A stretch of 64,000 bases of DNA from Eledone cirrhosa. Lineage: Eukaryota. Below the pieces are notes generated by a model. The model was not told where the DNA came from. It made no database searches and was given only the letters and a program-made list of their open reading frames with translations. The position numbers and the translations under genes were made by a program. Where the stretch lies: contig OZ024742.1 of NCBI GenBank assembly GCA_964016885.1, positions 89,404,001 through 89,468,000 on the forward strand, read 5' to 3'. Positions 5,691 through 61,160 of the stretch are shown here, piece after piece; position 1 is the first letter of the stretch, and every line of letters starts with the position of its first letter.

Positions 5691-5995
5691 TGTAACATGT
5701 AAATAAACAAATAAATAAACGAATACAAACACACACAGACACCCGGATGTGGCGCATCCGCAGACTGAGCACAGGCACAAAAACAAAGAAAAGAATCTCC
5801 AGTCACTGAAGAGGTCACAGAATGTGTGACGAAAGAACTTTGACAATATATAAACAACTATCTGGTTGTGGAACCAACCAACCAACCAGAAATTTATAAA
5901 TTCCCAAATTTATAAATTTATTATAATAAATTGAAGTGAAAGCATCTGGTGCGTGTGCTTCTTATTGGCAACATGACCCTCCCAAAGCATAACAA
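5690..5995 (+). mobile_element. Solo pLTR of the Penelope family found at 61773-64000
   Basis: Near-identical to the reverse complement of 61773-62100; contains an HHR. Confidence 0.85.
5801..5845 (+). ncRNA. Minimal hammerhead ribozyme
   Basis: GUCA-CUGAAGA-G-GUCAC..GUGAC-GAA-AGAACU-U-UGAC; stem I GUCA/UGAC. Confidence 0.8.
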
Positions 5996-6153: not shown

Positions 6154-6252
6154 GAGAGAGAGAGAGATACATCAAGTGTAAATGTGTATCAACTTTACTT
6201 ATATAGTTGCCAAATTTAAACAATATTAATATTCGCTTTTTTATTATTTTAG

Positions 6253-6899
6253 GTTATGGTTACTGTGGTACCCAGGTGTATAACCCTGCGACTCAAATTT
6301 GCTGTGAATCTCAGGTTTTATCCAAAAATGGATTGAAGAGGCCTGCTTGCTGTGGAAGTGTAGTATTTGATGGGGAAGATAAATTATGTTGCGCTGGTAC
6401 TTTAATAAATAAGGCACCAACCGTGAATGCATGTTGTGGCAACGCGGGGATAGATGCATCTCTTAAAGTCTGTTGTGGGGGGAAAGATAAAGTCAGGCTC
6501 ACCGAAGTATGTTGTGGTGGGGTAGCAGTTTATAGAGTAACTGTAGTTGATAGTTGTTGCGGGACAGTTCTTATCAATACATACAAAGAACTTTGCTGTG
6601 GTGGGGTTAAAAAGGTGATCGCAACCAGCTTTCCCGGAGGTTCTAATGTCATAGAAAACACATACGCTTGTTGTGGATCCAACATTTACAAAACAACTGT
6701 AAACGAATGTGTCGCTGGAAATATCAGGTCAAAGCATGTCCATTATCCACATCCACCAATGCTACCACCCAGAATACCAATACCACCACCCCAACTACCA
6801 ATACCGCATCCCCATCTACCAATACCACATCCCCAACTACCAATACCACCACCCCAACTACCACTATATCCATGGTGGACACGGCCGGGGTGGCAATAA
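6253..6899 (+). CDS. Galaxin-like protein, terminal exon (dicysteine CCG repeats plus Pro/His/Gln-rich tail)
   Basis: Open frame with repeated CC(G) motifs (YNPATQICCESQVL..ACCGSVVFDGEDKLCCAG..ACCGSNIY); pyrimidine tract and AG acceptor at 6251-6252; TAA at 6897; AATAAA at 6915 and 6928. Upstream exon(s) not located. Confidence 0.8.
6779..6862 (+). repeat. 4 x 21-bp coding minisatellite (IP[P/H]P[Q/H]LP)
   Basis: AATACCACCACCCCAACTACC-type units in tandem. Confidence 0.9.
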
Positions 6900-13479: not shown

Positions 13480-14392
13480 TCTCTAGGCTATCATGGTGTC
13501 TGCTCAGCCTAGGTTGGTCCCTATGGCTTGAGGGGAGTTCCCAACCTATGGTGTTGTTACTGCCCATATAGCTTGAGGGAGGTATGGCCGAGAGGTCTCT
13601 ACATGTTCTGGAGATTCCCTATAGTTTGAGGGGATTTCACATCTTATTGTGTTGCTACTGTCCATATATCTTGAGGAAGGTCTCGACCCTGAGGTGTCTG
13701 CATGTCCTGAAGAAGTCGGTTCTGAGGTTTATCAGGCCGCTTCCACCACTTAATATCTCGAGGGTCTCGTTCAGACATAGTTTGCATATGCAAGATCCCG
13801 CTTTATCGGGTGGTACTTTCCTGATTATGGACCAGGCCAGAAAGTACGGGGTCCTGTCCAGCTTAAGCTTCCAGATCAGGTCGGAGAGAGCCGTACTTTT
13901 CCGTTTGGCCTCCCTATTGAAGGAATGGCGATGGTTATACCAGCGGTCTTTAAAGCTCGTTGATGTGGCTCCTATGTAGAGGTGTTCGAAGTTAGGGGTT
14001 TTAACCCTACAACCGTATACTAGGTCCTTCTTAAGGCATTCATTACCAAGGGATCATGATTCGGGGTTTCTGCAGTGGCAGAGGGTAGTCGATCTCTGCG
14101 TGCCTAGATTGGGGTTCCGTTAGATGTTACATGGTGGTCTTCCCCCAGGCACGGTGGGGGTCCCCGGGTTTGTTTGGGTTTCTTGGGTGGGCACTGGGTC
14201 CCCCTTTCTCTCCTTTCACATGGTTCTGCTGAGTGCTTGTATTGCCATCTTCTGGTTGTGTGTGGTTTTTAAGCCTACTCCTGTTGATGCTAGCTATGTG
14301 TTCGGCCAGATTTCTCGTGGTGGAATACGAGAGCTTCACAGTGTGTCTGTTGAAGATCTTGTGGTATCTATGGTCCCTTGGGAAGCATTTAT
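13480..14392 (-). mobile_element. Penelope-like element 3' fragment (Nematis-like GIY-YIG)
   Basis: FPRDHRYHKIFNRHTVKLSYS followed by CHC, VYGC, YIGATSTSFKDRWYNH, W..K, CKLCLNE and CRH. Confidence 0.8.
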
Positions 14393-15389: not shown

Positions 15390-15444
15390 ACTGCCTGAAG
15401 AGGTCACAGCCAAAGATGGCTGTCACCGAAATATATATAGCAGT
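15390..15444 (+). ncRNA. Type-I hammerhead ribozyme in a PLE pLTR
   Basis: ACUGC-CUGAAGA-GGU.ACAGCCA(AAGA)UGGCUGU.ACC-GAA-AUAUAUAU-A-GCAGU; canonical core with palindromic stem III. Confidence 0.9.
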
Positions 15445-16334: not shown

Positions 16335-17507
16335 TTACCGACACCTCAGTATGCAGATTGGAGCACTCGACGAAGTACGCAGGTTGGTTTGTTTACTCCG
16401 GAGTAATGTATAATAATTAAGTCAAATATGTAAAATTTGGCTTCGTTTATTAAAAATTAAAAATTACTGCTATATATATTTCGGTGACAGCCATCCTATA
16501 GGAACACACCCACCTAGCAGCTAAAACCATGCCTCACACCGTTGTTTTCAACCCTTCTCTATCACTTCCTTAACCAGAACTCAAGTTTGCTGACACTAGA
16601 TAATATAAATAGACGAAGTACGTCGATGGAGTCCTATCTTCTGTGCAGATAGGCACCCCAAGTTTACGAACAACAGGCCCCAACGCCAACCCCGCATTGT
16701 GACCCGAATACCCTGGGGATATCCGCCTCGAACCCGTCCCCCCTCGCACGCATGAGTCAGGGATAAATACCACAAGTAAAAATGACGCGCCGATTATTAC
16801 CACTTACCCCTCTCCCCACCTCCAGAGGGGACTTTGACCCTGTGTCCGTGTGAGTGTATCCACATGTGGGCGTATATGGAGCTATGTGTATGTGTACAAG
16901 TATGAGTGTGTGTGACTGTGTAGACGTAATATGGGAATGCACCTGAGCCTGTGTTTGTGCATGTGTGCTTGCAACGGTGTGTGTTGACATACACGCATAT
17001 GTACTTTATGCTGAAATAAGAATTGTAGTCCTTTGCAATTCTGAATTTTGACACATAGGGCTTTGGTATTTTACACTCCACTTTTGCCTCATCTGTTTTT
17101 AAAACGCACCACTCTATCATAAAATAAGAATTATTATTCTTTACACTTCTCGATTCTGACACACAGGTTTTCTATTTCAGTTTATATTTTTCAAAATGTT
17201 TTATATTGGTTGTAGCACATACACATTTTTTATTTTTTGGGATACGAGCTTGTCCTACGACGCTGAAATTCGTTTGTTCTAGCCCATATAAATCCAGTTC
17301 CTCGGAGGAATAACAACACACCCAGGAGCTGGACATATCGATGTATTGACGGAGTAAAACACACTTCAACATAATGTGTACCCTCTTTTCCACACCAATT
17401 CGGACTGCCTGAAGAGGTCACAGCCAATGATGGCTGTCACCGAAATATATATAGCAGTAATTTTTAATTTATAATAAACGAATCCAAATTTTACATTTTG
17501 ACTTAAT

Positions 17508-18396: not shown

Positions 18397-18877
18397 AGAT
18401 GGCACTAAAGTATACTGGTAGAACCTGAAAATAAAATCTGCCACCAAATTAAAGCACATCCGTCCTGGTATTGTTGTTTGGGACCACACATTGAAAACGT
18501 GCTCTTTTGTAGAGATCAGCAGCCCACTTTATGTCAACGTTGTGAGAAAATACAAGAGAAGGAGGACATCTACGGATTATTGGTGAGGAGTTTGCAGATC
18601 CAGTATCCAAGATACACCTTCAGCTTCATAGCCATCATTATTGGAGCTACAGCTTACATACCAATCCACTTGGACTAAAGTATAACTGAACTTGGATTTG
18701 TGGACAAAGAACGCAGCTCCCTAATTCATAGACAACAAATGGCCGAGATAGCTGGCACCTTCAAGATCTGCAAAACATTCTTGCAATTCAAGTGATGACA
18801 ATTTCTTTTCTTTTACAAACTTGCCAGCAGGAAGGTGGCCGGTCAAAAATGTACTCGAAATTAAGAGAAAGAGAAAC
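18397..18877 (+). mobile_element. R4/Dong-clade 3' fragment (REL domain and 3' UTR)
   Basis: Highly similar to 21494-21976 but with stops and frameshifts; flanked by TACA repeats. Confidence 0.9.
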
Positions 18878-18956
18878 ATACATACATACATACATACATA
18901 CATACATACATACATACATACATACATACATACATACATACATACATACATACATA

Positions 18957-21900
18957 AAGAACCCACTAAATTGGAATTGGAAGCGGTGAACGAAATAGCT
19001 GGCAATTATCTGAAGGCTATACGATCTAAAGGTGTAGAAACGACATTTGAAACGCTCAATGTTTTGTTATATGTTTCAGCTGTCACATTGCTATCATATA
19101 ACACACATCTAAAACCACGCAATCAAGATACAAACAGAAAGCCTGAACCAGCGTGGATGCGAAATTTAAAAACCAAAATTTTGTCCCTGAGACGAAGTAT
19201 CTCACACATCGCAGTTGTTATGAAATGCAACATAGAGAGAAACTTCACACGACACCAGGAAGACCTAAAGAAAAAGTTAGAGAGACGATTTGGAGATACC
19301 AAATTTAAAACTTTGAACTCCAAATTACACCAGTTGAAACAACAACTCACAGCTACAACAGAAAGACTAAAATATAAGTCAACAGCCCATAAACGACAAG
19401 TGCTAAATAGATTGTTTGCCAGAGATCCTAAATCAGTTTATCGCAGCTTCGGTGGCAAAAGCTCAATCCCTGTAAACGACACCCCTTCAAAAGAACAGGT
19501 TGAGAACTACTGGAGATCTGTATGGGAAACGGATGACGGATTCAACAGACAAGCTAATTGGCTAAAACAACTGGAACAGGACTACTGCCAACATGTCCAG
19601 ACAAAACAATATGACATAGATGGGTCAATACTGGAAACAGCTCTACAGAAAATCTCGAATAGGAAATCGCCAGGCCCAGACCTCATTACAGGATACTGGT
19701 TGAAGAATTTCACTTTCTATCGGCAAGATCTCATACGGCTGTTTACAGAAACCATTAAGGGCACACAAGAACTGCCCAGATGGTTATCAACTGCCACTAC
19801 TCTCCTCATTCCCAAAAATAGCCAAACCACCCTTGCTAAAAATTACCGCCCAATTGCCTGCCAAAACATCATGTATAAATTATATACTGGGTGCCTTAAC
19901 CTGTTCTTACAGGATCACTGTGCTACCAACAACATCATAACACCTGAGCAAGCTGGTGGAAAGAGGGAGGTGTGGGGTTGCATAGATCACCTACTAACTA
20001 ACAAAATGATTCAGGAAAAAACAACAAAGAATCGCAGAAACATGACTGTCGTGTGGCTGGACTATCAAAAAGCATTTGATAGTGTACCTCATGGGTGGAT
20101 TATTAAGGCTTTACAGTTAGCTAAAGTCCCACAACCATTAGTAGCTGCTGTTGAACGCCTGACCAAGAACTGGTACACCAATTTGATCCTTAGAGGTGAG
20201 AAGGAGCAGGTTAAGACTGATAGGATACATTACCAGAAGGGCATCTTTCAGGGTGATAGCTTGTCAGTACTACTCTTCGTTCTCTCACTGAATCCACTAT
20301 CTTACCTACTCAGGAAACAAGGTGGACAAAGAAGTGGGCCCAGAAGTATCTCCCATCTTTTCTTTGTTGATGACCTGAAGTTGTATGGGCCAAATATCAA
20401 TGACATCAAGAAACAATTGGACCTCATTACACAATTTTCAACCGACATCAAAATGAAATTTGGTGAGTCCAAGTGTGCATATTTGGCAGTAAAACGTGGA
20501 AGAGCTGTGCCCTCCTCTAGAAATCTAGATATGAACGGCCTGACAATACAACCTCTGCAGTCAGGTGACAACTACAGATATCTTGGACAGGATGAGAATG
20601 TCAGATATGATGGACCCATAAATAAGGAGAGAACCAGAACTGAATACCTCAGAAGAGTAAAAAAAATATGGTCATCAGAACTGTCAGCATACAACAAATA
20701 CATTGCCCACAATACCTATGCTGTGCCAATTCTAACGCCAACATTTGGCCTACTGAACTGGTCATTGCAAGAACTAAGTGAGATGGATGTTAGAACTCGA
20801 AAACTTCTCAGTGTTACTGGGAACTTTAACATCAATGGTGATGTGGATAGGCTATACTTCTCACGCAAGGAAGGTGGCCGGGGTCTAAAATCAATATTAA
20901 CAACATATGAGACCCGGATAGTAACACTGAAGCAACACCTTCAACAGAGGAAAAAGGTTGGCGACCATCTTGCTCAGGTTTATGAGCATGAAAAAAGAAA
21001 TATCATTAGAATAGCGACTGATCTGGAGGAGAGATATGGAATAAAGCCTGATATAAATCTCTCACCCAGAGAAATCGGAAGATCCTATTCAATGTTCAAA
21101 CAAGAAAAGAAAATTGACCAATTTACAGAGAAAGTTGTGCATGGATACTTGAGGCGTAAAACACAGACCATAGAGGGGATAAACCACTCAAAAAGCCTGG
21201 CATGGAGTTCCGACAAGTTTATGACATCACACCTTGAGGGATATCTCTATGCAATACAGGAACAAGAACTCCCTACCAAATATCTGCTGCACAAAAGAGG
21301 AGGGCCAGCAGCTGACAATAAATGTAGGCTATGTAAAACAAAGATCGAGGATGTAAGCCACATTGTTGCCGGCTGCGAAAGAATGTCATCTCGCTACTAC
21401 CTCCCCATGAGACACGATGGGATAGCTAGAACTATCTGGAACGCACTTCGGAAAACAAAATTAACAACAAACGAGGAAGAATATATTGAGACAGATGGCA
21501 CTAAGGAATACTGGTGGAACCTGAAAATAAAAACTGCCACCAAATTAAAGCACAACCGGCCTGATATTGTAGTTTGGGACCACACATTGAAAACGTGTTC
21601 TGTTGTGGAGATCAGCTGCCCACTTGATGTAAACGTTGTCAGAAAAATACAGGAGAAGGAGGACATCTACGGACCATTGATGAGGAGCTTACAAATCCAG
21701 TATCCAAGATACACCTTTAGCTTCATACCCATCATTATTGGTGCTACGGGTTATATACCAACCCGCTTGGACCAAAGTATGACCGAACTTGGATTTGCGG
21801 ACAAAAAGCGCAGCTCCCTAATTCATAGTCTACAAATGGCTGCGATAGCTGGCACCTTCAAAATATGCAAAACATTCTTGCGATTCAAGGGATGACAATT

Positions 21901-33981: not shown

Positions 33982-35065
33982 TTAAAACAATGAAATAAAA
34001 AATCATGTTATTATAGATATACATCACTGCTTTACGAGCGTTTCTAGATGGTCATAATACATTGTATCTATACTTATACACAGTTATTGTTCTATGTAAG
34101 TTTACAAACTATCAGATAGAGAGAATGTTTACTTACATGCATATCACCAGCTGTTTTCAAAAGCAATAATAATTTTATTCAATAATAATTTTACTCAGAA
34201 TTAGTATTATGTCCATATTTGGAGGTAGTTAAAGAACTAACGAATCAAATTGTTTTTTTCATATGGTGTTAAGACGAAAAGTAATACACTTTAGTTGAGG
34301 TCATGACCCTTTGAAAGAAGTGGTTTAAAGGTGTTAGTAGAGATGGCATAAAAATCTATTAGGAAGGAAGTGGATTGTCAAACTGATAGTTGAATGTATC
34401 TTGTATAGTGAATTTAATAGGAATGTCAAAATAATTGGTGATTAGTGTTGAATTGAGTTTTAAGGTGAATATAAATATATTTTGACATTCCTTTTAAATT
34501 CACTATACAAGATACATTCAACTGTCAGTTTGACAATCCCCTTCCTTCCTAATAGATTTTTATGCCATTTCTACTAACACCTTTCAACCATTCCTTTCAA
34601 AGTGTCATGAACGCAACTAAAGTGTATTACTTTTCATCTTAACACCATATGAAAAAAACAATTTGATTCGTTAGTTCTTCAACTACCTCCAAATATGGAC
34701 ATGATACTAATTCTGAGTAAAATTATTATTGAATGAAATTATTATTGCTTTTGAAAACAGCTGGTGATATGCATGTAAGTAAATATTCTCTCTATCTGAT
34801 AGTTTGTAAACTTACATAGATCAATAACTGAGTATAGATACAATGTATTATGACCATCTAGAAACGATCGTAACGCAGTGAAGTATATCTCTAATGAGTT
34901 CATTTTTTATTTCATTGTTTTAACTTATATCATGACTCTGTTTTCCTTTTAATGTGTTAATGTTTTCTGCGATTTATCTTAACCTACAACATTTTCAACA
35001 TATGGATTACATTGAGTTCTTCATACATAATAGACCCCAGAACTTACAGTAGATACCTCTGTGTA
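33977..35065. repeat. Foldback element, ~450-bp inverted arms (PLE-type)
   Basis: 33977-34433 is the reverse complement of 34478-34929; same family at 43770-43945 and 59775-60325. Confidence 0.85.
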
Positions 35066-35139
35066 TGTATATATATATATAATATAATATAATGAAATGA
35101 CAGGAGGCTGGATTTGTGTAAATCCTTGAAAGGTTTATT

Positions 35140-35197
35140 ATACTATGATAATTTCAATGACCGGGTTCCGTATGAATCCGGTGATATCATCAGGTAT
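35140..35197 (-). ncRNA. Hammerhead ribozyme motif (U10.1/U11.1 variant)
   Basis: Reverse complement of AUAC-CUGAUGA-UAUCACCGG..CCGGUCAUU-GAA-AUUAUCAU-A-GUAU. Confidence 0.75.
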
Positions 35198-37244
35198 TCG
35201 AAATATAAAACGTGAATGTAATAGATAAAATCCATGGGGCTCAAAATCGAGGACCTGAGGGCGATCGCTATCCTGTACCTTCTACCTTAGCCGGTCGCCC
35301 TCGAATGACGTGGCTAAAGCTTACAGTGTGCTACTACCGGTCAGATAAAGGAAAACAGAAAGGGATGGGAACATAAGTTAGCGTTAATCTCATGCCACAA
35401 GACAAAAGAAAGAAAGAAAGGAGGGAGAGAGAAGAAGGGGGAAGGAAGAAGAAGAGAAGCTAGGGTTAATGTCAGCTATAAGAAGAAAGACAGAAAGAAA
35501 CGGAGGAAAGGTCGGTATTACAGTTAGGCCAGGATTGTCGCGAAGAAATTGTTTTTTTATTCTACGGGACACGTATCTAAACAACTACTACCGGTCAGAT
35601 ATAGGCAAACAAAAGAGGGGAAGGAAGATAAGTCTGCGGGAGGAAGACAGAAAGAGGGGAGAATAGAAGGTAGAGAATGAAGAAGTAGAAAAGTAAGGGT
35701 TGGTGGCTACAAGAAGGAAGATAGAAAGCAATAGGAAGAAAGGTCGATATTAATGTCAGACTACAGTCAGGCCAGGAGTGGCGCGAGAAAATTTTCACAG
35801 GGACCCGTATCTTAGCAGAGGTGAATATATTGGGGGTCAGTGTGTTATAATGTGTGAGCAGAATATTGGAACGTTACGTTTTTGTTTAGACTTATAGGAT
35901 GAAGTTAAAAATTAATAATTAATATTTAATATTAAAGAAATTAGAAAATTTAAAGTTAAGCAGTTTAACATTTTAAGGTTGATATATCTAATAATTCTGA
36001 TTTGATCTGTAATTTAAAGGTACTATGTGGTGGTTAAAACACCGGCCGCGCTCCGGGCCCCAGGGGAGAATTAAGCCACTCCGAGTAGTTTCATTTACCG
36101 AAAGAAGGGGAAATTTATTTTCCCAAGCACTCGAGGTAGGCCCATGCACCAGGGGGCTGGTCGCGCCGCCATTCAAACCCACCCAACAGTCCGACAGAAA
36201 GTTGGAACTTTAAAATATTGTTTAAATTTATAGGATGAAGTTGAAAAGATTTATAATTAATACTTAATATTAAAGAAATTAGAAAATTTAAAGTTAAACA
36301 GTTTAACATTTTGAAGTTGATATATCTAATAGTTCTGATTTGATCTGTAATTTATAGGTACTATGTGGCGGTTAAAACACCGGCCGCGCTCCGTGCCCCG
36401 GGGGCGAATTAAGCCACTCCGAGTAGTTTCATTTACCGAAAGAAGGGGAAATTTATATTTCCAAGCACTCCAGGTAGGCCCATGCGCCAGGGGGCTTGTT
36501 GCGCCGCCATCAAAACCCACCCAGCAGTCCGACTGAAAATTGGAACTCTAAAATCTTGCTTAAATTTATAGGATGAAGTTGAAAGAATTTAGAATAACAT
36601 TATAAAATTAAAGAGTAAGAAGATTGAGTATTGAACAAACAGAAAAATGAAAATTAAACATTTAAAAAAACTTCTATGAGGTTTTGGGTTGCGGGGTTTA
36701 ATTAAAGAGAGTCTTTTATGAAAAAACGCTAATTGTATTATGTAGATCTATAAGTTATCCTAGTGGGATGTAGAGTACGGGATATAGTCGTGTAATATTT
36801 ATTTTTGTTCTCAGGGGGAGACATTCTAGTGTCGTGTGCTAATGGGTACAAGTGAGCAAAAGTCCCAATAGGAGGAGTAGAAATACATGGATACATAGAA
36901 GTGGAATACGTGGAAGAGCACATTGATAAAGCAAAGGTATAAATATATAAACATATCAATATATAAATATAAATATGTAAATAAAGAAATAAGAGTGGTG
37001 TTGGAGTAAGATGGAGAAATCAAGACATAGGAGAAGTACAATATAGTTCAGGTTGCAGTATTTACCACTTGACAGAGCTGGTCTATTCCGTATTGTCAAT
37101 CGTAATGTAATAATATAGAGAGTACTCAACGTAAAGCAATTCAACCGTCTTTGTTTTTGTAGTTGGTGGTGCTATTACGGAGTTAAATATATTATAATGA
37201 AATGACAGGAGGCTGGATTTGTGTAAATCCTTGAAAGGTTTATT

Positions 37245-37302
37245 ATACTATGATAATTTCAATGACCGGATTCCGTATGAATCCGGTGATATCATCAGGT
37301 AT
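37245..37302 (-). ncRNA. Hammerhead ribozyme motif
   Basis: Same family as 39730. Confidence 0.75.
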
Positions 37303-37628
37303 TGGAAATATAATATGTGAATGTAATAGATAAAATCCATGGGCTGAAAATCGAGGACCCGAGGGCGATCTCTATCCTGTACCTTCTACCTTAGCCGGTC
37401 GCCCTCGAGTGAAGTGGCCAAAGCTTACAGTGTGCTACGACCAGTCAGATAAAGGAAAACAGAAAGGGATGGGAACATAACATGACCGGTAGTAGCACAC
37501 TGTAAGCTTTGGCCACGTCACTCGAGGGCGACCGGCTAAGGTAGAAGGTACATGATAGCGATCGGCCTCGGGTCCTCGATTTTCAGCCCCATGGATTTCA
37601 TCTATTACATTCACGTATTATATTTCGA

Positions 37629-37686
37629 ATACCTGATGATATCACCGGATTCATACGGAACCCGATCATTGAAATGATTATAGTAT
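37629..37686 (+). ncRNA. Hammerhead ribozyme motif
   Basis: Same family as 39730. Confidence 0.75.
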
Positions 37687-39729
37687 AATAAACCTTTCAA
37701 GGATTTACACAAATCCAGCCTCCTGTCATTTCATTATAATATTTAACTCCGTAATAGCACCACCAACTACAAAAACAAAGACGGTTGAACTGCTTTACGT
37801 TGAGTACTCTCTATATTATTACATTACGATTGACAATACGGAATAGACCAGCTCTGTCAAGTGGTAAATACTGCAACCTGAACTATATTGTACTTCTCCT
37901 ATGTCTTGATTTCTCCATCTTACTCCAACACCACTCTTATTGCTTTATTTACATATTTATATCTATATATTGATATGTTTATATATTTATACATTTGCTT
38001 TATCAATGTGCTCTTCCACGTATTCCACTTCTATGTATCCATGTATTTCTACTCCTCCTATTGGGACTTTTGCTCACTTGTACCCATTAGCACACGATAC
38101 TAGAATGTCTCCCCCTGAGAACAAAAATAAATATTACACGACTATATCCCGTACTCTACATCCCACTAGGATAAATTATAGATCTACATAATACAATTAG
38201 CGTTTTTTCATAAAAGACTCTCTTTAATTAAACCCCGCAACCCAAAACCTCATAGAAGTTTTTTTAAATGTTTAATTTTCATTTTTCTGTTTATTCAATT
38301 CTCAATCTTCTTACTCTTTAATTTTATAATGTTATTCTGAATTCTTTCAACTTCATCCTATAAATTTAAGCAATATTTTAGAGTTCCAACTTTCTGTCGG
38401 ACTGCTGGGTGGGTTTTGATGGCGGCGCAACCAGTTCCCTGGCGCATGGGCCTACCTGGATTGCTTGGAAAAATTAATTTCCCCTTGTTTCGGTAAATGA
38501 AACTACTCGGAGTGGCTTAATTCGCCCCGGGGGCCCGGAGCGCGGCTGGTGTTTTAACCGCCACATTGTACCTTTAAATTACAGATCAAATCAGAACTAT
38601 TAGATATATCAACCTTAAAATGTTAAACTGTTTAACTTTAAATTTTCTAATTTCTTTAATATTAAATATTAATTATTAATTTTTTCAACTTCATCCTATA
38701 AATTTAAACAATATTTTAAAGTTCCAACTTTCTGTCGGACTGTTGGGTGGGTTTAATGGCGGCGCGATCAGCCCCGTGACGCATGGGCCTACCTTGAGTG
38801 CTTGGAAAAATAAATTTCCCCTTCTTTCGGTAAATGAAACTACTCGGAGTGGTTTAATTCGCCCGGGGGTCCCGGAGCGGACGGTTTCTTAACCGCCACA
38901 TAGTACCTTTAAATTACAGATCAAATCAGAACTATTAGATATATCAACCTTAAAATGTTAAACACTGTTTAACTTTAAATTTTCTAATTTCTTTAATATT
39001 AAATATTAATTATTAATTTTTTCAACCTCATCCTATAAGTCTAAACAAAAACGTAACGTTCAAATATTCTGATCACACATTATAACACACTGACCCCCAA
39101 TATATTCACCTCTGCTAAGATACGGGTCCCTGTGAAAATTTTCACGCGCCACTCCTGGCCTGACTGTAGTCTGACATTAATATTGACCTTTCTTCCTCTT
39201 TCTTTCTATCTTCCTTCTTGTAGCCACGAAACCTTACTTTTCTACTTCTTCATTCTCTTCCTTCTCTCCTCCCCTCTTTCTGTCTTCCTCCCGCAGACTT
39301 ATCTTCCTTCCCCCTTTTTGTTTGCCTATATCTGACCGGTAGTAGTTGTTTAGATACGGGTCCCGTAGAATAAAAAAAAGATTTCTTCGCGACAATCCTG
39401 GCCTGACTGTAATACCGACCTTTCCTCCTCTTTCTTTCTGTCTTTCTTCTTATAGCTGACTTTAAACTTGGCTTCTCTTTTTCTTCCTTCCCCCTTCTTC
39501 TCTCTCCCTCCTTTCTTTCTTTTGTCTTGTGGCATGAGATTAACGCTAACTTATGTTCCCATCCCTTTCTGTTTTCCTCTATCTGACCGGTAGTAGCACA
39601 CTGTAAGCTTTAGCCACATCACTCGAGGGCGACCGGATAAGGTAGAAGGTAGAGGATAGCGATCGCCCTCGGGTGCTCGATTTTCAGCCCCATGTATTTT
39701 ATCTGTTACATTCACGTATTATATTTCGA

Positions 39730-39787
39730 ATACCTGATGATATCACCGGATTCATACGGAACCCGGTCATTGAAATGATCATAGTAT
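39730..39787 (+). ncRNA. Hammerhead ribozyme motif with palindromic stem III
   Basis: AUAC-CUGAUGA-U..ACCGG..CCGGU..U-GAA-AUGAUCAU-A-GUAU. Confidence 0.8.
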
Positions 39788-40223
39788 AATAAACCTTTCA
39801 AGGATTTACACAAATCCAGCCTCCTGTCATTTCATTATAATATTTGCTCCGTAATAGCACCACCAACTACAAAAACAAAAACGGTTGAACTGCTTTACGT
39901 TGAGTACTCTCCATATTATTACATTACGATTGACCATACGGAATAGACCAGCTCTATCAAGTGGTGAACCTCAAACCTGAATATATATATATATATTTAT
40001 ATATATATATATTATTCAATTCAGGAAAGTTTGTTGATCATTTAATCCGCTGACGTTTTTTGTAAACGGACATAAAGCACTCTATAAAATATCATTTTCG
40101 TTTCTATTTATTCTAACTTTATTTGATTTTGTTTTTTTTATTTTCTAATTTAATTTAATTGTTTGATAATGTAGTTAATATTACAATTGATGTAGAGAAT
40201 ATAAAACACATACAAATGTTCAG

Positions 40224-42269: not shown

Positions 42270-42344
42270 GCTGTCTGATGATGACACGACACTCGCACAC
42301 AGAACAGTGTGGCCAGTGTCGTCACTGAAATATATATCATAGCA
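42270..42344 (+). ncRNA. Hammerhead ribozyme motif with extended stem II
   Basis: GCUGU-CUGAUGA-U..ACGACACU..AGUGUCGU..U-GAA-AUAUAUAU-C-AUAGC. Confidence 0.75.
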
Positions 42345-48516: not shown

Positions 48517-51390
48517 TAGGGTGTGGCATAAAAGGCAAGGTCACAATACTAACGCTCCCTGTGTATTTTCCCCATTATAAATGCCCCAATTGGTAAAATA
48601 AATCATATTTTGTATAAAATAAATTATTTTGAGACTTGTCTATATCATGGTGATTATAGTAGAGTGTGATTATGTTGTATGAAATCATGAAAATGTGAAA
48701 CCAAATATGACCATACAATAATTGTTTATTTTATTAATCCATTATATTAGTAAATCAGCTACAAGGAAGAAACAAGTTCAGTTAAGTTAACTCCAGTCAT
48801 ATTTTTTTCAGAGTTTCTTTTTTGAAATCAGCGACGACTAGCTTCGACTACTTGAAGAACACACTGATTCTCCTCCTCATTCTTGGTGATGGCAACAAAA
48901 TCAGTCATCAACTTGACTGCTCTCTTCGTCGTTGACTACCTTGATATTGTGAACAACAGCACAGGCATTTTGATATGACGCTTGTGATGACCAAGTTGCA
49001 GGTGACAGCTCAAACCAAACATCGTCGAGATCAAGGAAATCGAACAGAAGCCTTGATTTCTTCCCAACTAGATGAGGCAGCTTCGTGGACGACTTCAACT
49101 CGGGAAATACTGGAGCATCACGATCGAGAGGCCCAGACGTTTTCGTTTTGACAAGACGCTGGGCTATTTGTTTCTTCTCGGACTCTTGGACCCGATTTCA
49201 GAACAGCGCTAGCGGAATGGCTTCCACTGTCATGTACCAAAGATGCCTGCTCAGAGCAGTAGTGGCTGCCTGCGAGAGATCTTTGTCAACCTTACTGTAC
49301 TGTGTCAACTCCACGTAAAATTGGAGGTCATTGGATGGTGTATCAGCACACTTGACTGCTGTCAGCCAGTATCGCACGTAGAACAGAGCATTGAAAATAC
49401 AGATCCGGCGCAACTTTCACCTTTTAGCTTGATCGTAATTGAGTCACTCACCAAATGCATACATCTTTGCACTATAGATGATTGTGGACATCCACCAAGC
49501 GTTATGATGTGCACCAGGCCGCATCCAATGAATTCCACGAGGAGGGGTGACACCAAGCAAGATCAACATCCACTCGGCACATCCTCGGTAGTCGTCAGAT
49601 GTCAGCAAATCTTGGAGGAACTTGATGTTCTCAGAACACAGACGCTTGAGTCTCCGGTCGACAATGTTCAATGTTTTAAAGTTGGTCTTGTCCGTGAGTA
49701 ACACCCAATCTTTTTTGAACTCCTTGAACTCTGGGGTGTCTGGACTGGACATTACTCCGAATAGTTGTTGCCACACTGCACACAAGATACGCTCCATGAA
49801 TGGTGCCGACAAGCAAAATAAAACACCTTTTTGTTGAGCATCTCTTCTAGTTTCACGCAGGCACCATTTTTCCATCCAGAATTCTAAGCAATTGTGTCGA
49901 AGATCAAGCCCACCACAGACCCATCAACATTCCAATCTTTAACAAGATCAAATGATGCTTTGGCTTGGGTGGTTCCAGTGCCATCAGGAATTATGGGAAC
50001 ACCGAGGAGTTTACCTTCTCTGAAGTCCGGAGTTCCAGCAACTAGCACACCTAGCCTCTCGTGGTCACCAGGAATTATTTTGCCATCCCAATGCAAGGTA
50101 ACAAAGTCTGGTACAGCAAATTGTTCCTTTATGTGTTCAGCCCCCACAGTTTGATCTTCTTAGCTGCACGTCTGCTACTATTCTTGGAGAGAGTTGTGGC
50201 GTCTATGTCAGTCCCATCCTCAGAAATAATCGATGCCATAAATGTTGTTTTCTGGCCCAGTGTCAGCTTTAAACGATCTGCCATTAGAGAAATTTTTCGA
50301 CTTTGAAATGGATTCTTTGCGAGTTCCTCGTTTCTTGTCTGACTTTGAACTGTTTCTGGGTGGGTTTGAGGGCTGAAATTCAGGATCCTGTTCATCTTCA
50401 GTTTCATCATTGGTTGAACTTGAATCTCTCAGTTCATTACGTGGACGTTGTGCTGCTACAGGACCTGACAAACGCTTTCTATCGTTCTCTGACTCTCGAC
50501 GAGCCACAGAAACCTGATTACGCTTAAACTTTGAAGATAGCTTTTTCTGGTAACCCTTGTCTTCAGCACCCAGAGATACTTTTTTCTGGCAACGCAGGGC
50601 TTCGAGAAATGTAGCATCTTCCATTTTCTCTTCATTATTACGAAGACGGTCTTTCAAAATTTTCTTTTCTGCATCAGCATGTGCAATGTAGAAATACGAA
50701 TCCAATTCAGAAATAAATAGTGCTTCCTTTTCTTTGTTTGACTTAGAACCTTTGTTTCTTTTGTAAATTTCTATATTCACTGTACATGTTCATAATTTTC
50801 AGTTTCACTTTGTCTGTTCGTTGAGTCGCCACACCAGCTTTTTCCAACTGACTAACTATTTCCATCACATATCTATCCGCAATAGCACCATTGAAGCTCA
50901 CATGCTTTTCGTGTTTCATAGAACCATTTTTCAGGTAGAAGAAATATCTTAGAACATCCCCCTTTGTTGGTATTTTGTTTGGTGATAAGGATGTAACATA
51001 TTGCCCCAGGAGCCATATTTCTCGATTATCACAACGGAGCGAGTAGCTACAACTAGGCCTACTGGTTTCCGAAATTATTCTGCCAATTTGCAACTATTAG
51101 GCAAGGCTTAAATTAGTCTGAAATAATCAAAATTACATTATAAATTGATAATATACAAAATGGCATAAGAAAATGCATAGGGAGCTAAGAAAAAGACACT
51201 TTTGTGTAAAATTATCGACAGCAAATGCCTACAGCAATGGTATGTCCCACTGCGGGCTCTGTAATTTAGAACTGCTGCATATTTTAAGAGACGATAGGAT
51301 GCTGCTTAACATCAAAATAGAAAAATCCATTTTCTGTAGGCATAAAATAGCTACTAGATTTACGAACTTCAAACCACCATGATTTGAACC
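48517..51390 (-). mobile_element. Decayed hATm-type DNA transposon
   Basis: KIPTKGDVLRYF, LHWDGK, FDTIA, DDYR, RPGAHHNAWWM, RHLWY and KVVND in order; terminus TAGGGTG at 48517; second TIR not seen; many frameshifts. Confidence 0.75.
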
Positions 51391-52305: not shown

Positions 52306-52400
<95 letters not shown>

Positions 52401-52404
52401 TATA

Positions 52405-52612
52405 TATAAGTTTAAATTTGGTGGTTTACCACTGGATAGAATTGGTCATTCTGCAATTTTAATCATGACGTAATATGGAAAAATCACTCGGAGTTTGCAA
52501 CACATCCATCTTCAATGTTGAATCTTGCTGGTGATGCGGGGATGGAGTAAATGTATTATAAAGTGAAATGACAAGAGGCCAAATATGTTGAATTTCCTTA
52601 ATTTCTTATTAC
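52405..52612 (-). mobile_element. pLTR tail related to the 35088/57559 family
   Basis: Reverse complement GAATGACCAATTCTATCCAGTGGTAAACC matches 59470-59498. Confidence 0.6.
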
Positions 52613-52978: not shown

Positions 52979-55900
52979 TCTATATATATAAATCTGAGGA
53001 TGTGTGTGTTAAGGTCTGTAACGGATTCACGTCCACAACTTCCGACGGATTCTATTCAAAGTCAGGACAATTATTGCTTTTGGTCAGGAAAAGGTCATGA
53101 AGCAAAAGGAAATTCAAATCCATCAACAATAAGGGCAAAAATCGATCATGATCATTCCCCCTCGCTATAATTTAACTGTTTTACTCTCTCTGTCGCTCTT
53201 CACTCCCTAAATAACAACACTGCAGAGAGAGAAACAATGTGTATGATCAAATGGAGCGTTTCGTATATTCCCTCTCTCTATAATTTAACTGCTTTACTCT
53301 CTCTGTCGCTCTTTACTCCCTATATGACAACACTGCGGTGGAGCATTCCGTATTGAGCGTTCCGTATTGACATACGGCTTATATGGTGCATTATATAAAT
53401 CGAAATGTAACCCGTGAACTTTTTCCTGGGCAAAATTATTCGAACAGACATGACCTCATTGCCAGAGTGTTCAGACTGAAACTGGCTAAACTCATGGCTT
53501 TTATCAAAAAGGGTCAGGTACATGGGGCTGCAAAATGTGACATGTTCACCGTCGAATGGCAAAAACGAGGGCTTCCGCATGCTTACATTTTGATTTGGTT
53601 AGCTGATAAAATCAAAACAAATGCCATAGACAGCTGAAATCCCTAACCCAGCAACTGACCAGGAATTACATAATATCAGCAAAGCTAACATGGTCCATGT
53701 GCCTCGGGTCCTAATGAGCATTACGCGTGTCTGAAAGAGGGGTCGTGCAGTAACGGATACCCCAAAAAATGTGTTGACCAGACTCAGACTGGTGGCGACG
53801 GGTACCCCCTGTACAGGCCCGAGACGGCCCGAGAACGGTTGTGGCTTCACCACAACAGTAAAGGCAGGTCAAGTCGACAATAGATGGGTGGTCCCTTACT
53901 GCCCGCTTCTCTTGAAGATGTTCAATGCCCACATCAACGTTGAGATTTGCAACTCCGTCAAGTCGATAAAATACATATACAAATATGTAAATAAGGGCTC
54001 TGATGCCGCAATGTTCGCATTTCAAGCTGAAAATAGCAGGGATGAGATTACAGAATACCTGGCGGGGCGGTACATCAGTAGCAATGAAGCTTTTTGGCGC
54101 CTATTTGGTTTACCCCTACACCAATGGCACCCCGCCATCGTACAGCTTGCGGTACATTTGGAAAATGGGCAAAGGGTTTACTTTACGGACCAAACCGCCG
54201 CCAAGTTGGCCGCCGACCGAAAGAGACCATTCTGACGGGTTTCTTCAAACTTTGCCAGTTCGATGCATTTGCGCAAACAATTGTGTACCCCCAGGTTCTC
54301 TCCTACTTTATATGGCCGAAAAACACGTGAGTGCGAAGAAAGTCAGGTCAGGCTGTTGAAAGACATCCTGGTGTAAAATTTGACAGCTGTCTTGGAAGGG
54401 TTTACACTGTGTCCCCAAGTCAGCATGAGTGCTTTCATCTCCGCCTTCTTGTGCATGAAATTGCAGGCCCACAAAGTTTTCAGGACCTCAAAACTGTTGA
54501 TGAAGAAATATGTGATACGTACTGGGAAGCCTGCTTTAAACGTGGTCTCTTGAAAGGTGATTCGCAATGGGATTCCACTTTAGCATAGGGTGCTTTGTTG
54601 AAATCAACTAAAAGTCTACGAGAACTCTTTGCCATTTTGCTTCAAAAGTGTGAATTGGGTGATCCTAAATCTTTCTGGGTCAAGTACAGAGACTTGATGT
54701 CTGAGGACTTCCTGCGCCTGGCTCATCTGCAGTATCCTTCAGTGGAAGTTGGTTGCAGCGACATTATCTACAACAGGGCACTCATTGATATCGAGGACGC
54801 CCTCCTCGACATTGTAGGGAACGAATTGGCGACGTATGGTTTGCTGTCAACCATCAGAGAGGACGCTAACACGTTGGCCCCGGATTTGTTGCGAGAAACA
54901 GCATATGACATCGATTCTCTTTCCCAATACATAGAGGAAAATGAGCCTAAACTTCTGTCGGACCAAAGGTTGGCTTATTTAACTATCATTGACGCGGTTC
55001 AAAATGAGACTGGGGGTATTTACTATCTCGATGCTCCTGGGGGTAATGGAAAAATCTTGGGAACAAAATTGATTCTCGCTAAGATTCGTCAGGAGAAAAA
55101 AATTGCGTTGGCCGTTGCATCGTCCTGGATCGCTTCTACTTTGCTGCCGGGAGGCAGGACAGCACACTCAACCTTAAACTCCCCTTGGATTTAGTAAAAA
55201 CTGAGACACCAACATACAATATCAGCAAGAGTTCACACGAAGCTCTGGTTCTCAAAAAATGTTACCTCATATTTTGGGATGAGTGCACAATGGCACACAA
55301 GGGTGCGCTTGAGGCATTGGACAGGACTCTGAAAGACATTAGGGATTCTACGACTCCTATGGGTGGCGTAACCCTTCTGCTATCAGTGGATTTTCGGCAA
55401 ACGCTGCCTGTCATCCCCAAAGGGACAAGAACTGATGAAGTGCGTGACTGCCTTTTAAGTTGTCCATGTTTAGCCCCAGGTGAAGAGTTTGTAGCTGAGC
55501 ACAAATGTGAGTGCTCATTTGCATGGTGACAACATGTCTGCAGCATTTTCTAACATTTTAACATTTGGTGTGGGCAATGTCCCTGCGGATGACAAGGGCG
55601 GCATAGCAATCGACTCTCTGTGCAACATTGTGAGCATCCCTTCTGAGCTTTGGGAAGCAGTTTTTCCTAATGTCTTTAATAACTTTAAAAAATTCGATTG
55701 GCTCAGCGAAAGAGCCATCCTTGCTCCGAAAAATCCCATGGTTAATTTTATTAACGAGCAGCTGAAGAAGATTCCCGGTAAAGAGCACATCTTCAAATCT
55801 ATCGACCTGACGTCAGACCCCGACGATATCGTTAATTATCCGGTTGAGTTATTAAATTCCCTTGAGCCCCCAGAGCTCCCACCTCACATTCTTAAGCTTA

Positions 55901-56629
55901 GGGTTGGCCGTCCCATTATGCTAATAAAGAACATGCGTCCACCAAAGCAGTGCAACGGTACTCGCATGGTCGTCAAGTCACTGACGCCCCAATTGGTTGA
56001 GGCCACCATTGTAACAGGGTGCGGGAGAGGGGAGAATGTTCTCATTGCAAGGATGAACCTTTTCCCCTCGGTGTCAGATATCGCGTTCTATTTCCGGCGA
56101 TTCCAAATCCCGGTGAGACCATGTTTTGCCAAGTCACAAGGGCAAACATTGTAGGTGGCGGGCATCCATTTGGGAGAGCCATGCTTCGCCCATGGCCAAA
56201 TTTATGTTGCCTGTTCTCGTGTTCTCGCGTAGGGAGCAGGAATAGATATTTTGCTTACACTCCTCAAGGGATGACACCCAATATCGTCTACAAATAGGTG
56301 TTATAGATGTTGATGCAGGTGTTGGAGGTGTTGGAGCAATGCCGTCTAGAAAACTATTTCCAGGTAGGGTCACGCTTGGCGGACAGATCTGACACCCAGC
56401 GGCATCAGGGCCACCATCTTGCAACTTTGGTCTGCTAAATTCGGTATTGGAAGATTATTAACCCATCATTGATTGTCCAAAATGCTAATTGGTTCGTAAC
56501 TTTTAATAACCGGTTCAGCTGCTTTATGTACTTAATTGATAAGCTTATTTGCTTTCAAGCCACGTTTACCTGTATGTAACTTTTCATAGAAAATGAACAA
56601 ACCTGAACAACGCCGGGCTAAACTGCTAC
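52979..56629 (+). mobile_element. Decayed autonomous Helitron (Rep plus Pif1 helicase)
   Basis: A|TCTATATATATAAA start; EWQKRGLPHAYILIW (HUH), KYIYKYVNKG (Y2), LDAPGGNGK, WDECTM, DFRQTLPV, KSQGQTL; 3' hairpin CCTG..CCGGG then CTAC|T; many stops. Confidence 0.92.
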
Positions 56630-57501: not shown

Positions 57502-57558
<57 letters not shown>

Positions 57559-57564
<6 letters not shown>

Positions 57565-59510
57565 AATGACAGGAGGCTGGACTGGTGTAATTCCTTAAAA
57601 GGTTTATTATACTATGATCATTTCAATGACCGGTTTCAGTACGAATCCGGTGATATCATCAGGTAATCGAAATATAACAAAGGAATATAATAGACAAAAT
57701 CCATGGGGCTGAAAATATTTTCAGGGCTTTTGGGATTCACTTTGGATATTCAGACTCGAACATACACTAGGTATCACCTGATACCATTCCTACTCTTCCA
57801 TCCTGTATATCTATATGTATAACATTGCATTCTCCAACCGTGCTATATATTGCCCATTTACTGCACCTTGATCTGTATTTTATTTCTTCTGTATTGTGAT
57901 TTCTTCTATGTTCTTATATACTTCCTTTTTACTCCCTACATCACCACCCTAGGTATGACTGTATTTTGTATTTTACTTATGGTATTACTTATGCATTTAT
58001 TTACTCCCTTTACTCTCATTATATACGTATCCTTGTACTCATTAGCACACGACCCTATAATATTGCTCTCTGTACCCTTATATCTGTCTATCTTTATTTA
58101 CTCCCCCTACCCACCCAGGTATCATACTACATATAACCGGACTAACTATAGTCTATTTGCACATTTCATCAGATTTTATCACTTTCAACTTCACATCACG
58201 GGTGTGAATAACTAATAATCGTTTGGTACACGCGATGATCCGACTGATGTGGCGGCTTTCCCGACTGCACACCAGTCGCTCGGGTCGATCAGCCTTCCTT
58301 GAGTGCTTGGAAAAATAAATTTCCCCTTCTTTCGGTAAACGAAAATACTCGGAACGGTTGCTTCGCCCTGGGGCCCTGCCGGACTTGGAACCCGCCTCGA
58401 CACCGGTTATTGACTGCCAAACAGTACCTTTAAATTCTAGGCTTAATCATAACTTTTAATTTTATCTAGCCTCCTTCTACTAGCACTTAACTAAATCCCC
58501 CACCAGTGTGAATCACTAGTAGTCGTTTGTTGTATACGATATCCGGCGGACGGTGGCGGACTTCCCGCTGGCACACCCGACGCTTAAGACAGTTAACATT
58601 CCTGGGGTGCGCGGAAAAATAAATGTCCATTTCTTTCGCTATACAATAATACTCGGAACGGCTAACACGCCGTTGGGCCCCGGGCTGGCCGGGGGTACGC
58701 TACGTCGCTAAGCATGGGTTTAATCTTTACTCTGTATTCTACCCTGAAACTTTATCGTGACTATCTATAATACACTGAAACTTTTTCATAACAGCCCCCT
58801 TCTGTAAATTCTTTAACTAAATCTCACAACTTCAAACTTAAACCTTATTTTTCTAATTTCATCTTAAATGGCATCTTCTAACTCTAAACATAAATTTAAC
58901 GTTTCTAATTGTTAATCGAAATTTCTGTCCATACATTATACCATGCAGACGCCCACTATATATTTCTATATATAGTTTTGTTAAGATATATGTTCTTTGA
59001 TAAAATATTTTTCGCGGCACTTCTAGCACGCATGACCAGCTTGATTGTGACCTGACTTCAACGCTGGCCTCTGTCTTTGAAGGGATGGTAGTATTACACT
59101 ATAAGCCTACGCCCCTTCACCAAATAGTCATATGTAGGCTTAATAATGACCACATGAGGGCGACCGACTGGGGTAGAAGCTGGTAAATGTTCGGTCGCCT
59201 TCATGTCCGAGATTTTCAGCCTCATGGATTTTGTCTATTATATTCCTCTGTTATATTTCGATTAGCTGATGATGTCACCGGATTTATTCTGAACCCGGTC
59301 ATTGAAATGATAATAGTATAATAAACCTTTTAATGAATTACACGAGTCCAGCCTCTGTAATTTTATAATAATTAACTCCGTACTCGCAACACCAACTACA
59401 CAAACGAAGACGGGTGAGTTACAATACGTTGAGTGCTCTCCATAATATTACATCGAGGTTGACGATACTGAATGACCAGTTCTATCCAGTGGTGAACCAA
59501 CAAACCTAAA
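57559..59510 (+). mobile_element. ORF-less ~1.9-kb PLE-type element (inverted pLTR, body, pLTR), diverged relative of 35088-39981
   Basis: HHRs at 57609-57665 (-) and 59262-59319 (+); shares the pLTR and the duplicated internal module; (TA)n on both sides. Confidence 0.85.
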
Positions 59511-59619
59511 TATATATATATATATATATAATGGAAACATTTGAACAGGGACAAAACAGAGAGGCAGTACAACGAATGTTTATTAATTTCACGCTCTGGA
59601 GAGTGGGGTGTTGGTGGGG

Positions 59620-60325: not shown

Positions 60326-61160
60326 AAACTATTGGACAAATCCCCAAAACATTCTTTGAAATTCTACATAAACATTTACCACCAAACCACAGATACCACC
60401 AAATATTTAACAAATATACTGTTAAATTCTCATACTCTACATCAAGCAATCTCAAACAAAAAATAAGCAACTACAACATTTATAAACTTTAAAATAATAT
60501 GAGTACACCACCGCAGCATAAAAAGGCAAATAATACAATCCTTCAACCTAGAAAACACAACCACCCAAATCACCAAAACAAAAACAACAGAACACAAAAT
60601 CACAATACAACCCTAACACCAAACCACCCACAAAGCAACCTTCATTCTCCTGTTATCATTAATTACAATAGAAATAGCTCAAGGATTAAGGAGAATAATA
60701 TAGGCACCCCTAATAACCATCATACGTATGGCTGTAATTGCAGAAATAGAAGCATTTGCCCTTAAATGGAAACTGTTTGATTGATAATGTAAGATATAAA
60801 TGCACTGTGTCTACTACAGACTCCAACAAAACATATATAGGATCTACATCAAACACATTTATGAAAAGATTTTACGCACACTCTAGTAGTTTCAACAATA
60901 CTAAACTAGCTAACACCACATCTTTAGCTGAAGCGGTAAATAATTATAAAAAGAAAAAATTAGATTTCAAGTTATCGTGGAACACCAATCTACAAAGAAC
61001 TCCATATCTTGGGAACAGGAGGGAATGCAGATTATGTTTAGGGGATATCTTGGAAATTACTAAATCTAAGGACGATTTATTAAATAAAAGACAGGAATTG
61101 ATCATAGTTTGTAATCACCGTATACGAAAAACATTTAAATACTATAAACCTAATTAAATA
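60326..61160 (+). mobile_element. Penelope-like element 3' fragment (Nematis-like GIY-YIG)
   Basis: RYHQIFNKYTVKFSYS, CNCRNRSICPLNGNCL, YKC..TYIGSTSNTF, CRLCL, LLNKRQELIIVCNH. Confidence 0.85.

Follow-up and report, generated by a model that had tools for sequence, protein, structure and literature searches.

How does a near-perfect palindrome with hammerhead-like motifs on both arms and no gene inside it come to stand in an animal genome? We asked this of a 64,000-nt stretch of the Eledone cirrhosa assembly GCA_964016885.1 (contig OZ024742.1, positions 89,404,001 to 89,468,000 of the forward strand), hereafter the window, in which an element of ~4.9 kb at window positions 35088-39981 is arranged head to head between two (TA)n tracts. 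The original prediction had taken the ~2.1-kb intervals between its ribozymes for the monomers of a giant, possibly circular, retrozyme-like RNA mobilised by Penelope reverse transcriptases (RTs). In our reading, which we hold with good confidence, the locus is a single old head-to-head insertion into (TA)n of a high-copy retroelement family that has no open reading frame (ORF) and that was most likely written in trans by the RT/endonuclease of a Penelope-like element (PLE).

Repeat search and direct reading of the sequence resolve the palindrome into two arms that match at 93-97% (for example, 36175-37190 with 37739-38754 and 35084-35447 with 39480-39843). They meet directly at 37480/37483, without a loop, and at this centre the left arm reaches ~37 nt deeper into the unit. 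The right arm runs from a partial upstream copy (37483-37868) through the body, composed of three ~338-nt repeats and GA-rich repeats, to a second 3' module (39584-39981), giving direct repeats 2101 nt apart (37483-37744 and 39584-39845, 95% identity). Those of the left arm are spaced by 2105/2104 nt (35081-35238 and 37186-37343; 35237-35376 and 37341-37480). With lengths of 2,393 nt (left) and 2,499 nt (right) for a unit of 2,101 nt, both arms exceed one unit. On the outside, the left arm ends 138 nt short, so that the stretch 39844-39981 at the end of the right arm, the tail, has no mirror. Two same-strand hammerhead-like motifs per arm, 2101 and 2105 nt apart, had been foreseen, and both a descriptor scan and the repeats bear them out.

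This arrangement belongs to a family that is abundant in the 3.0-Gb genome. Searching with the pseudo-long-terminal-repeat (pseudo-LTR) sequence had been expected to reveal a copy number and an autonomous PLE partner; it supplied the first, with 2,326 first-look candidates for a 385-nt 3' piece (40 were scored, at 93-100% identity), but in the sampled loci not the second. The 5' piece of the body (its first 301 nt) gave 491 candidates, and the 53-nt hammerhead-like motif had 963 + 925 exact genome matches (1,888) versus 0 for a reversed control. In three sequence runs (one sample from one study, read as DNA), words from the hammerhead/3' module were ~20-100x deeper than words from the body, which fits many short truncated copies.

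The ends of these copies are regular on one side and irregular on the other. For an unbiased sample we took the first 30 motif loci in genome order, representing 23 independent places and 36 arms. The tail end terminates 20 of these arms and the no-tail site 14, with 2 ambiguous; their inner (5') ends are scattered. The two fixed 3' ends lie 60 nt (39843) and 198 nt (39981) downstream of the predicted cut at 39783; both sites are UA-rich (…UUAUAAUA and …CCUGAAUA), and TA-type repeats stand directly at 13 of 16 tail ends and 11 of 12 no-tail ends. Head-to-head (-,+) pairs were found at 12 of the 23 independent loci, 11 of them combining one tail arm with one no-tail arm and the twelfth being ambiguous. 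Among the first 100 listed motif sites, 42 combine into 21 (-,+) pairs spanning no more than 5.1 kb, a distance at which no (+,-) pair occurs. We also noted that the inner ends of paired arms often nearly coincide at loci L041-L070 (differences of 1, 5, 7 and 16 nt in 4 of 11 pairs), and that inner ends cluster ~80-100 and 140-160 nt upstream of the predicted cut, positions that may be RNA 5' ends or switch points.

It is these insertion scars that lead us to infer PLE authorship. Craig et al. (2021, PMC8557442) give as marks of PLE insertion a strong 5' truncation, pseudo-LTRs formed by partial tandems, a 5'-truncated copy set in inverted orientation against the 5' end, a short tail confined to one end, a bias towards (TA)n and hammerheads in the pseudo-LTR. 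In the Eledone family the 5' truncation varies while the 3' end stays constant, and the insertions have pseudo-LTRs, an adjoining inverted copy that is itself 5'-truncated, a one-end tail and an AT-rich or microsatellite target. The likeness to endonuclease-bearing PLEs, as described there and by Frangieh et al. (2024, PMC11167929), includes the abutting position of the inverted copy and a hammerhead just upstream of the start sites; the differences are an element with no RT/GIY-YIG ORF, the length of the tail, the UA-rich starts and a U-U in place of the G10.1-C11.1 pair.

The anole element Poseidon offers the closest guide to how such a locus might arise. According to Frangieh et al., its enzyme in vitro cleaves an AT-rich target on both strands and extends each of them, reverse transcription starts at two adjacent internal RNA sites whose interval becomes the tail, and the hammerhead cut site lies ~85-92 nt upstream of the start sites; insertion proceeds without need of cleavage, and no RNA-seq reads were found ending at the cut. 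By analogy, a PLE endonuclease would have cut both strands of the AT-rich target, each 3'-OH would have primed reverse transcription at one of two internal UA-rich sites on a transcript longer than one unit, and the two cDNAs would have met at their 5' ends. With its hammerhead-like motif placed 60 nt before the first start site, the family has the geometry seen in Poseidon. After its insertion the window copy was copied twice by segmental duplication. Cleaved monomers are unlikely templates; a doubly cleaved linear monomer carries the start sites at its 5' end and could thus template only 60-200 nt, not a full copy.

Comparison with the rest of the family indicates that the window copy is not typical. 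In all 20 sampled copies that retain the 5' end of the body, similarity to the window breaks at one point, and ~525 nt of extra sequence lie upstream. This region, which we call Z, is in part a diverged duplicate of the body start, and it is missing from both arms in the window. The canonical unit therefore consists of Z, body and 3' module, measuring ~2.2-2.65 kb according to the number of 338-nt repeats. Eight of the 20 full-length copies have an upstream same-strand copy that ends at the tail and is followed by Z, that is, a pseudo-LTR (520-529 nt before the body in 6, 700-750 nt in 2), and the tail-to-Z junction 24-mer occurs 52 times, dispersed over many contigs. The Z-less tail-to-body junction (searched with a 26-mer and an 18-mer) occurs in 6 places, all within the window locus and two loci on the same contig at 89.88 and 90.33 Mb. 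These two are segmental duplicates, given that they share their flanks with the window at 97-98.6%; at 90.33 Mb the left arm has acquired one more 2.1-kb unit, and in a fourth paralog, at 89.57 Mb, all of the palindrome but its final ~560 nt is gone. The 2,101-nt monomer is thus a local variant that has not spread as such, confined to three paralogous loci, and the hammerhead spacing of the family is ~2.2-2.65 kb; the proposal of a 2101-nt ribozyme-to-ribozyme unit does not carry over to the family. The features of the insertion are collected in Table 1.

Table 1. Features of the head-to-head insertion, in window coordinates
Feature	Position	Strand	Evidence
Left flank, TA-rich microsatellite (target)	35040..35087	.	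Direct reading; flank common to paralogous loci
Left arm, inverted copy, ~1.14 units; outer end is the no-tail end	35088..37480	-	Inverted repeats; outer end mirrors 39843
Hammerhead-like motif, outer left; helix III AUUAUCAU, imperfect palindrome	35193-35144	-	Descriptor scan
Z-less junction, left arm (tail joined straight to body start)	37051..37068	-	18-mer and 26-mer junction searches
Hammerhead-like motif, inner left; perfect 9-bp distal helix II; helix III AUUAUCAU	37298-37249	-	Descriptor scan
Right arm, direct copy, ~1.19 units, ending in the constant family 3' end (…AACCTGAA) at (TA)n	37483..39981	+	Repeat search and family copies
Upstream partial copy (pseudo-LTR) of right arm	37483..37868	+	95% direct repeat of 39584-39968
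Hammerhead-like motif, inner right; G>A change in helix II; helix III AUGAUUAU; predicted cut after 37682	37633-37682	+	Descriptor scan, alignment with outer copy
Z-less junction, right arm; canonical copies carry ~525 nt (Z) here	37861..37878	+	Junction searches
Three ~338-nt tandem repeats inside body; mirror set at 35859-36585	38289..39071	+	Repeat search
3' module (downstream pseudo-LTR copy): subfamily-specific upstream part, hammerhead-like motif, conserved 3' region	39584..39981	+	Alignments with relatives
Hammerhead-like motif, outer right, equal to the family 53-nt motif; predicted cut after 39783	39734-39783	+	Descriptor scan, exact genome matches
Tail, ~138 nt, this arm only, between the two fixed copy ends	39844..39981	+	Left arm stops at mirror of 39843
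Right flank, (TA)n microsatellite	39982..40012	.	Direct reading

The element is non-autonomous at best, with no ORF combining a telomerase-like RT and a GIY-YIG endonuclease. Its longest stop-to-stop frame is a low-complexity one of 119 aa, Pfam returned nothing for 8 frames of the element and one frame (213 aa) from a relative, and tblastn with 14 translations from this genome (6 RT or long ORFs and 8 ORFs from PLE endonuclease loci) found nothing below E 0.3. The absence of RT, endonuclease or credible ORF between the hammerheads, as first noticed, is therefore borne out by frames, Pfam and tblastn alike. Nor is the unit simply the 3' untranslated region of a coding PLE, an outcome that would have told against the original prediction: the longer copies that we found are likewise non-coding. 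A coding role for Z was considered, with a 69-codon frame opening right after the tail, and rejected: in one subfamily (4 of the 9 copies that align across the entire frame) it is broken by a premature stop and a deletion of 11 nt, in a fifth copy by three in-frame stops, and in a sixth by a 1-nt gap that shifts the reading. Among described elements, PMC8557442 presents a parallel in the non-autonomous Chlamys PLEs of Chlamydomonas, such as MRC1, which have no ORF and lack canonical hammerheads, and whose partners are known by 3'-end similarity. The family resembles the MRC1 type in having pseudo-LTRs and no ORF (there, too, head-to-tail insertions are formed, and a PLE enzyme is thought to be used by way of a shared 3' end), and differs from those green-algal elements in its animal host, in its hammerhead-like motif and in that no partner was found in the sampled loci.

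The motifs themselves were located with a descriptor comprising CUGANGA, a foldable helix II, GAAA, a short helix III closed by A15.1-U16.1, a non-G at 17 and a helix I of at least 4 bp. All four in the element have the form CUGAUGA - long helix II - GAAA - AUGAUCAU - A. The palindromic helix III AUGAUCAU is intact in the outer right motif, the only one equal to the family 53-nt motif, and the other three carry one helix III change each. The whole window contains 10 descriptor matches, where 100 dinucleotide shuffles average 0.18 and never exceed 2. Its hammerhead motifs are not due to chance, and the cuts predicted earlier after 37682 and 39783 fall at the same positions in our scan. The core is complete (C3 U4 G5 A6 N7 G8 A9, G12 A13 A14, A15.1-U16.1 and H17, with helices I and II), and the NUH site is AUA. 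The minimal PLE hammerheads of Cervera and de la Pena (2014, PMC4209133) likewise combine a long helix II with a helix I of 4 bp and a palindromic helix III. That paper also describes a highly conserved G10.1-C11.1 pair with an unpaired base between 9 and 10.1, a closing arrangement that the motifs here do not have. PLE hammerheads are described there as opposite-strand pairs 100-700 bp apart and same-strand pairs a few kb apart, the latter flanking an RT ORF at ~3 kb, unlike the non-coding interval between the present pairs.

Several observations weigh against the PLE reading. The tail, at ~138 nt, is longer than the 30-40 bp published for PLEs (PMC8557442). Being UA-rich, both start sites could anneal to a (TA)n primer; in the anole element, by contrast, initiation takes place without homology. 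The presence of an identical Z-less junction in both arms, with no Z-less source locus elsewhere in the assembly, is not explained. None of 30 GIY-YIG loci, each taken with 1.5 kb of flanks from at least 10,597 first-look candidates in this PLE-rich genome, has the 3' module or the motif, and none of the PLE fragments beside sampled family copies shares the hammerhead type or the 3' module. In the motif, helix II begins with U-U at 10.1/11.1, in place of G10.1-C11.1, followed by A-U, U-A and a C-C mismatch in its proximal part before 5 bp are formed, and Rfam gave no hammerhead match, neither at the gathering score nor at E<=10; its sole matches were chance microRNA-like ones at the palindrome centre and in (TA)n. 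Of the earlier claim that Penelope RTs mobilise a non-coding unit, we retain that the family is non-coding and mobile and bears PLE insertion scars, for which trans mobilisation is the best reading, but a coding partner was not found in the sampled loci.

Candidates for such a partner were rejected for different reasons. PLE endonuclease fragments near several family copies (L017/L040, L027/L039, L028/L038, L036 and L059/L091) are separate insertions in a shared (TA)n with other hammerhead types. A tie between the motif of L059 and the adjacent endonuclease fragment was dismissed since the alignment consists of a normal 3' end followed by unrelated sequence, and a search with the sequence upstream of a diverged copy matched an unrelated small repeat. 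With a profile of the 3' module, nhmmer recovered from the collected loci the family members and three distant module-only relatives (window 52400-52600, L038 595-805 and L072 5507-5558), none of which lies beside a coding ORF. The first of these (window 52400-52612, minus strand) is ~65% identical to the module, ends in a long (TA)n and has no hammerhead motif upstream. The window also contains PLE linker and GIY-YIG endonuclease fragments of several families, at 13658-14390 (-), 60340-61154 (+), 2691-3371 (+) and 51212-51376 (+), with 24-88% amino-acid identity to fragments elsewhere in the genome.

If the element was mobilised by a PLE enzyme, what does the hammerhead-like motif contribute? 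Three diverged relatives were compared, one at window 59110-59540 and two arms near C1:36.55 Mb. The 53-mer is 91% identical in the first and 100% and 98% identical in the two arms; identity falls to 73-79% in the 3' region that follows it and to 27-62% in the sequence that precedes it, making the motif the best-conserved block. The block and the next ~200 nt are therefore the functional module that several subfamilies share. In five diverged modules RNAalifold proposes a hairpin at 39802-39817 (6 bp closing an ACAC loop), situated past the cut but before the first start site, and a longer imperfect stem in the tail (39847-39910), but only 1 of 21 pairs shows a compensatory change. The relative within the window is itself part of a diverged (80-88%) family member at 57556-59540, in which an inverted no-tail piece is joined by a direct copy ending in (TA)n and the hammerhead block is again best conserved.

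The motif has probably been retained because the enzyme or the processing of the element RNA needs it, and self-cleavage is a prediction only. The most serious competitor to a working ribozyme, one that we consider plausible but less likely than not, is that the block is kept as a structure which the mobilising enzyme recognises, or else serves as a promoter or a processing signal, self-cleaving weakly or not at all. The U-U and C-C positions of proximal helix II and the silence of Rfam even at E<=10 speak for this, and the conserved block extends downstream into the region of the two start sites. Moreover, PLE hammerheads are poor cleavers in vitro (PMC4209133), and the anole hammerhead cleaves only with protein, its cleavage being dispensable for insertion (PMC11167929). 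What this alternative accounts for less well is the retention of every invariant core nucleotide, of the AUA cleavage site and of the palindromic helix III, the stronger conservation of the 53-mer than of the adjoining 3' region, and the fact that the one helix II difference in a diverged relative, A-U to G-U, keeps the pair.

A circular template fares worse. Here, double hammerhead cleavage would release a monomer (2.1 kb in the window, ~2.65 kb in canonical form) to be ligated into a circle and copied round and round by a PLE RT, yielding arms of more than one unit; we regard this as improbable. Rolling-circle copying, if true, would make both arms exceed one unit, as they do, and re-circularised RNA could explain that length. 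Because the predicted cut precedes the start sites, a full copy needs uncleaved or re-circularised RNA; partial tandems are dispersed, as the 52 tail-to-Z junctions attest; and a palindromic helix III is suited to the dimeric activation reported for PLE and retrozyme hammerheads (PMC4209133; PMC7229834). However, no array of more than ~1.6 units was seen in ~70 sampled loci, and only two same-strand pairs at unit distance (2,230 and 2,362 nt) occur among the first 100 listed sites. None of the 36 sampled arms has an inner end within 5 nt of the predicted cut, and several copies that have no pseudo-LTR in front of them start no more than ~80 nt into Z (L072 and L076 at an identical base, with L077, L079 and L084 close by), which better fits a defined RNA 5' end; such ends may lie near the start of Z and ~200-240 nt upstream of the cut. 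Cleavage followed by ligation leaves no scar and so cannot create the Z-less junction, and the one PLE tested in vitro, Poseidon, argues against a need for cleavage.

The fold of the monomer points the same way. The original prediction envisaged an internally structured monomer, but the cut-to-cut sequence, with a minimum free energy of -396.2 kcal/mol against -393.4 +/- 10.8 kcal/mol for 12 shuffles (z -0.26; 51% paired), folds no better than its shuffles, unlike the circles of metazoan retrozymes, which are highly self-paired and have units of 170-400 nt (Cervera and de la Pena 2020, PMC7229834); consensus lengths in Li, Clavereau and Pollet (2026, bioRxiv 10.64898/2026.07.22.740005) span 51-972 bp. 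At the DNA level the family resembles metazoan non-LTR retrozymes in being non-coding, in its type I hammerhead-like motif with a short palindromic helix III, in its co-occurrence with PLEs and presumed mobilisation by them, and in a pseudo-LTR-like layout; besides the weaker self-pairing, its 2.1-2.65-kb unit and its partial tandems of ~1.1-1.6 units, in place of multi-copy arrays, set it apart. We see little prospect that the family is a kilobase-scale retrozyme, in which a 2.2-2.65-kb ORF-less unit would be cut by a hammerhead dimer, closed into a circle several times larger than any described retrozyme and rolling-circle copied by a PLE enzyme from both ends of a (TA)n break. A giant retrozyme circle is neither shown nor favoured. 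Least probable of all is a product made at the DNA level (fold-back or palindrome amplification, satellite expansion or an assembly artefact): DNA-level change does act on this locus, which was copied with its 97-98.6% identical flanks and which in one paralog gained a 2.1-kb left-arm unit and in another lost most of the palindrome, yet 11 of 12 independent paired loci repeat the head-to-head layout of a tail arm and a no-tail arm, with inner junctions and (TA)n sites that differ, the 5' truncations form a series with constant 3' ends, and the palindrome is assembled in three paralogs.

Motifs of other types were also found in the window, in keeping with several other hammerhead types among the PLEs of this genome. 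Two well-formed minimal hammerheads with G10.1-C11.1, a 10-bp helix II, helix III AUAUAUAU and a 5-bp helix I stand at 15395-15439 and 17409-17453 (+), 2,014 nt apart on the same strand and just upstream of a LINE-like RT ORF (18752-21895). Further descriptor matches at 5806-5840 (+), 41158-41124 (-), 61942-61908 (-) and 42275-42338 (+) represent two more types, one with helix II GGUCACAG…GUGUGAC and one with a 45-nt helix II and AUAUAUAU; the GGUCACAG…GUGUGAC type also follows long ORFs with weak RVT_1 or GIY-YIG similarity at loci L038 and L090. Unrelated to the element are a frame with galaxin-like repeats at 6207-6899 (+) and PIF1-helicase frames, Helitron-like, at 53735-56154 (+).

Two hammerheads around a stretch without an ORF are what any element with a pseudo-LTR presents, and alone are no sign of a circular RNA. 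If our reading of the insertion is right, the protein-less passengers of Penelope-like machinery are not limited to sub-kilobase retrozymes: a non-coding element of 2.2-2.65 kb, with only a ~300-nt conserved 3' module that holds the hammerhead-like motif and two copy-start sites, has reached thousands of copies. The regularity of its ends, with one tail arm and one no-tail arm, both in (TA)n, would then make the family a large natural data set on how copying is initiated on two strands.

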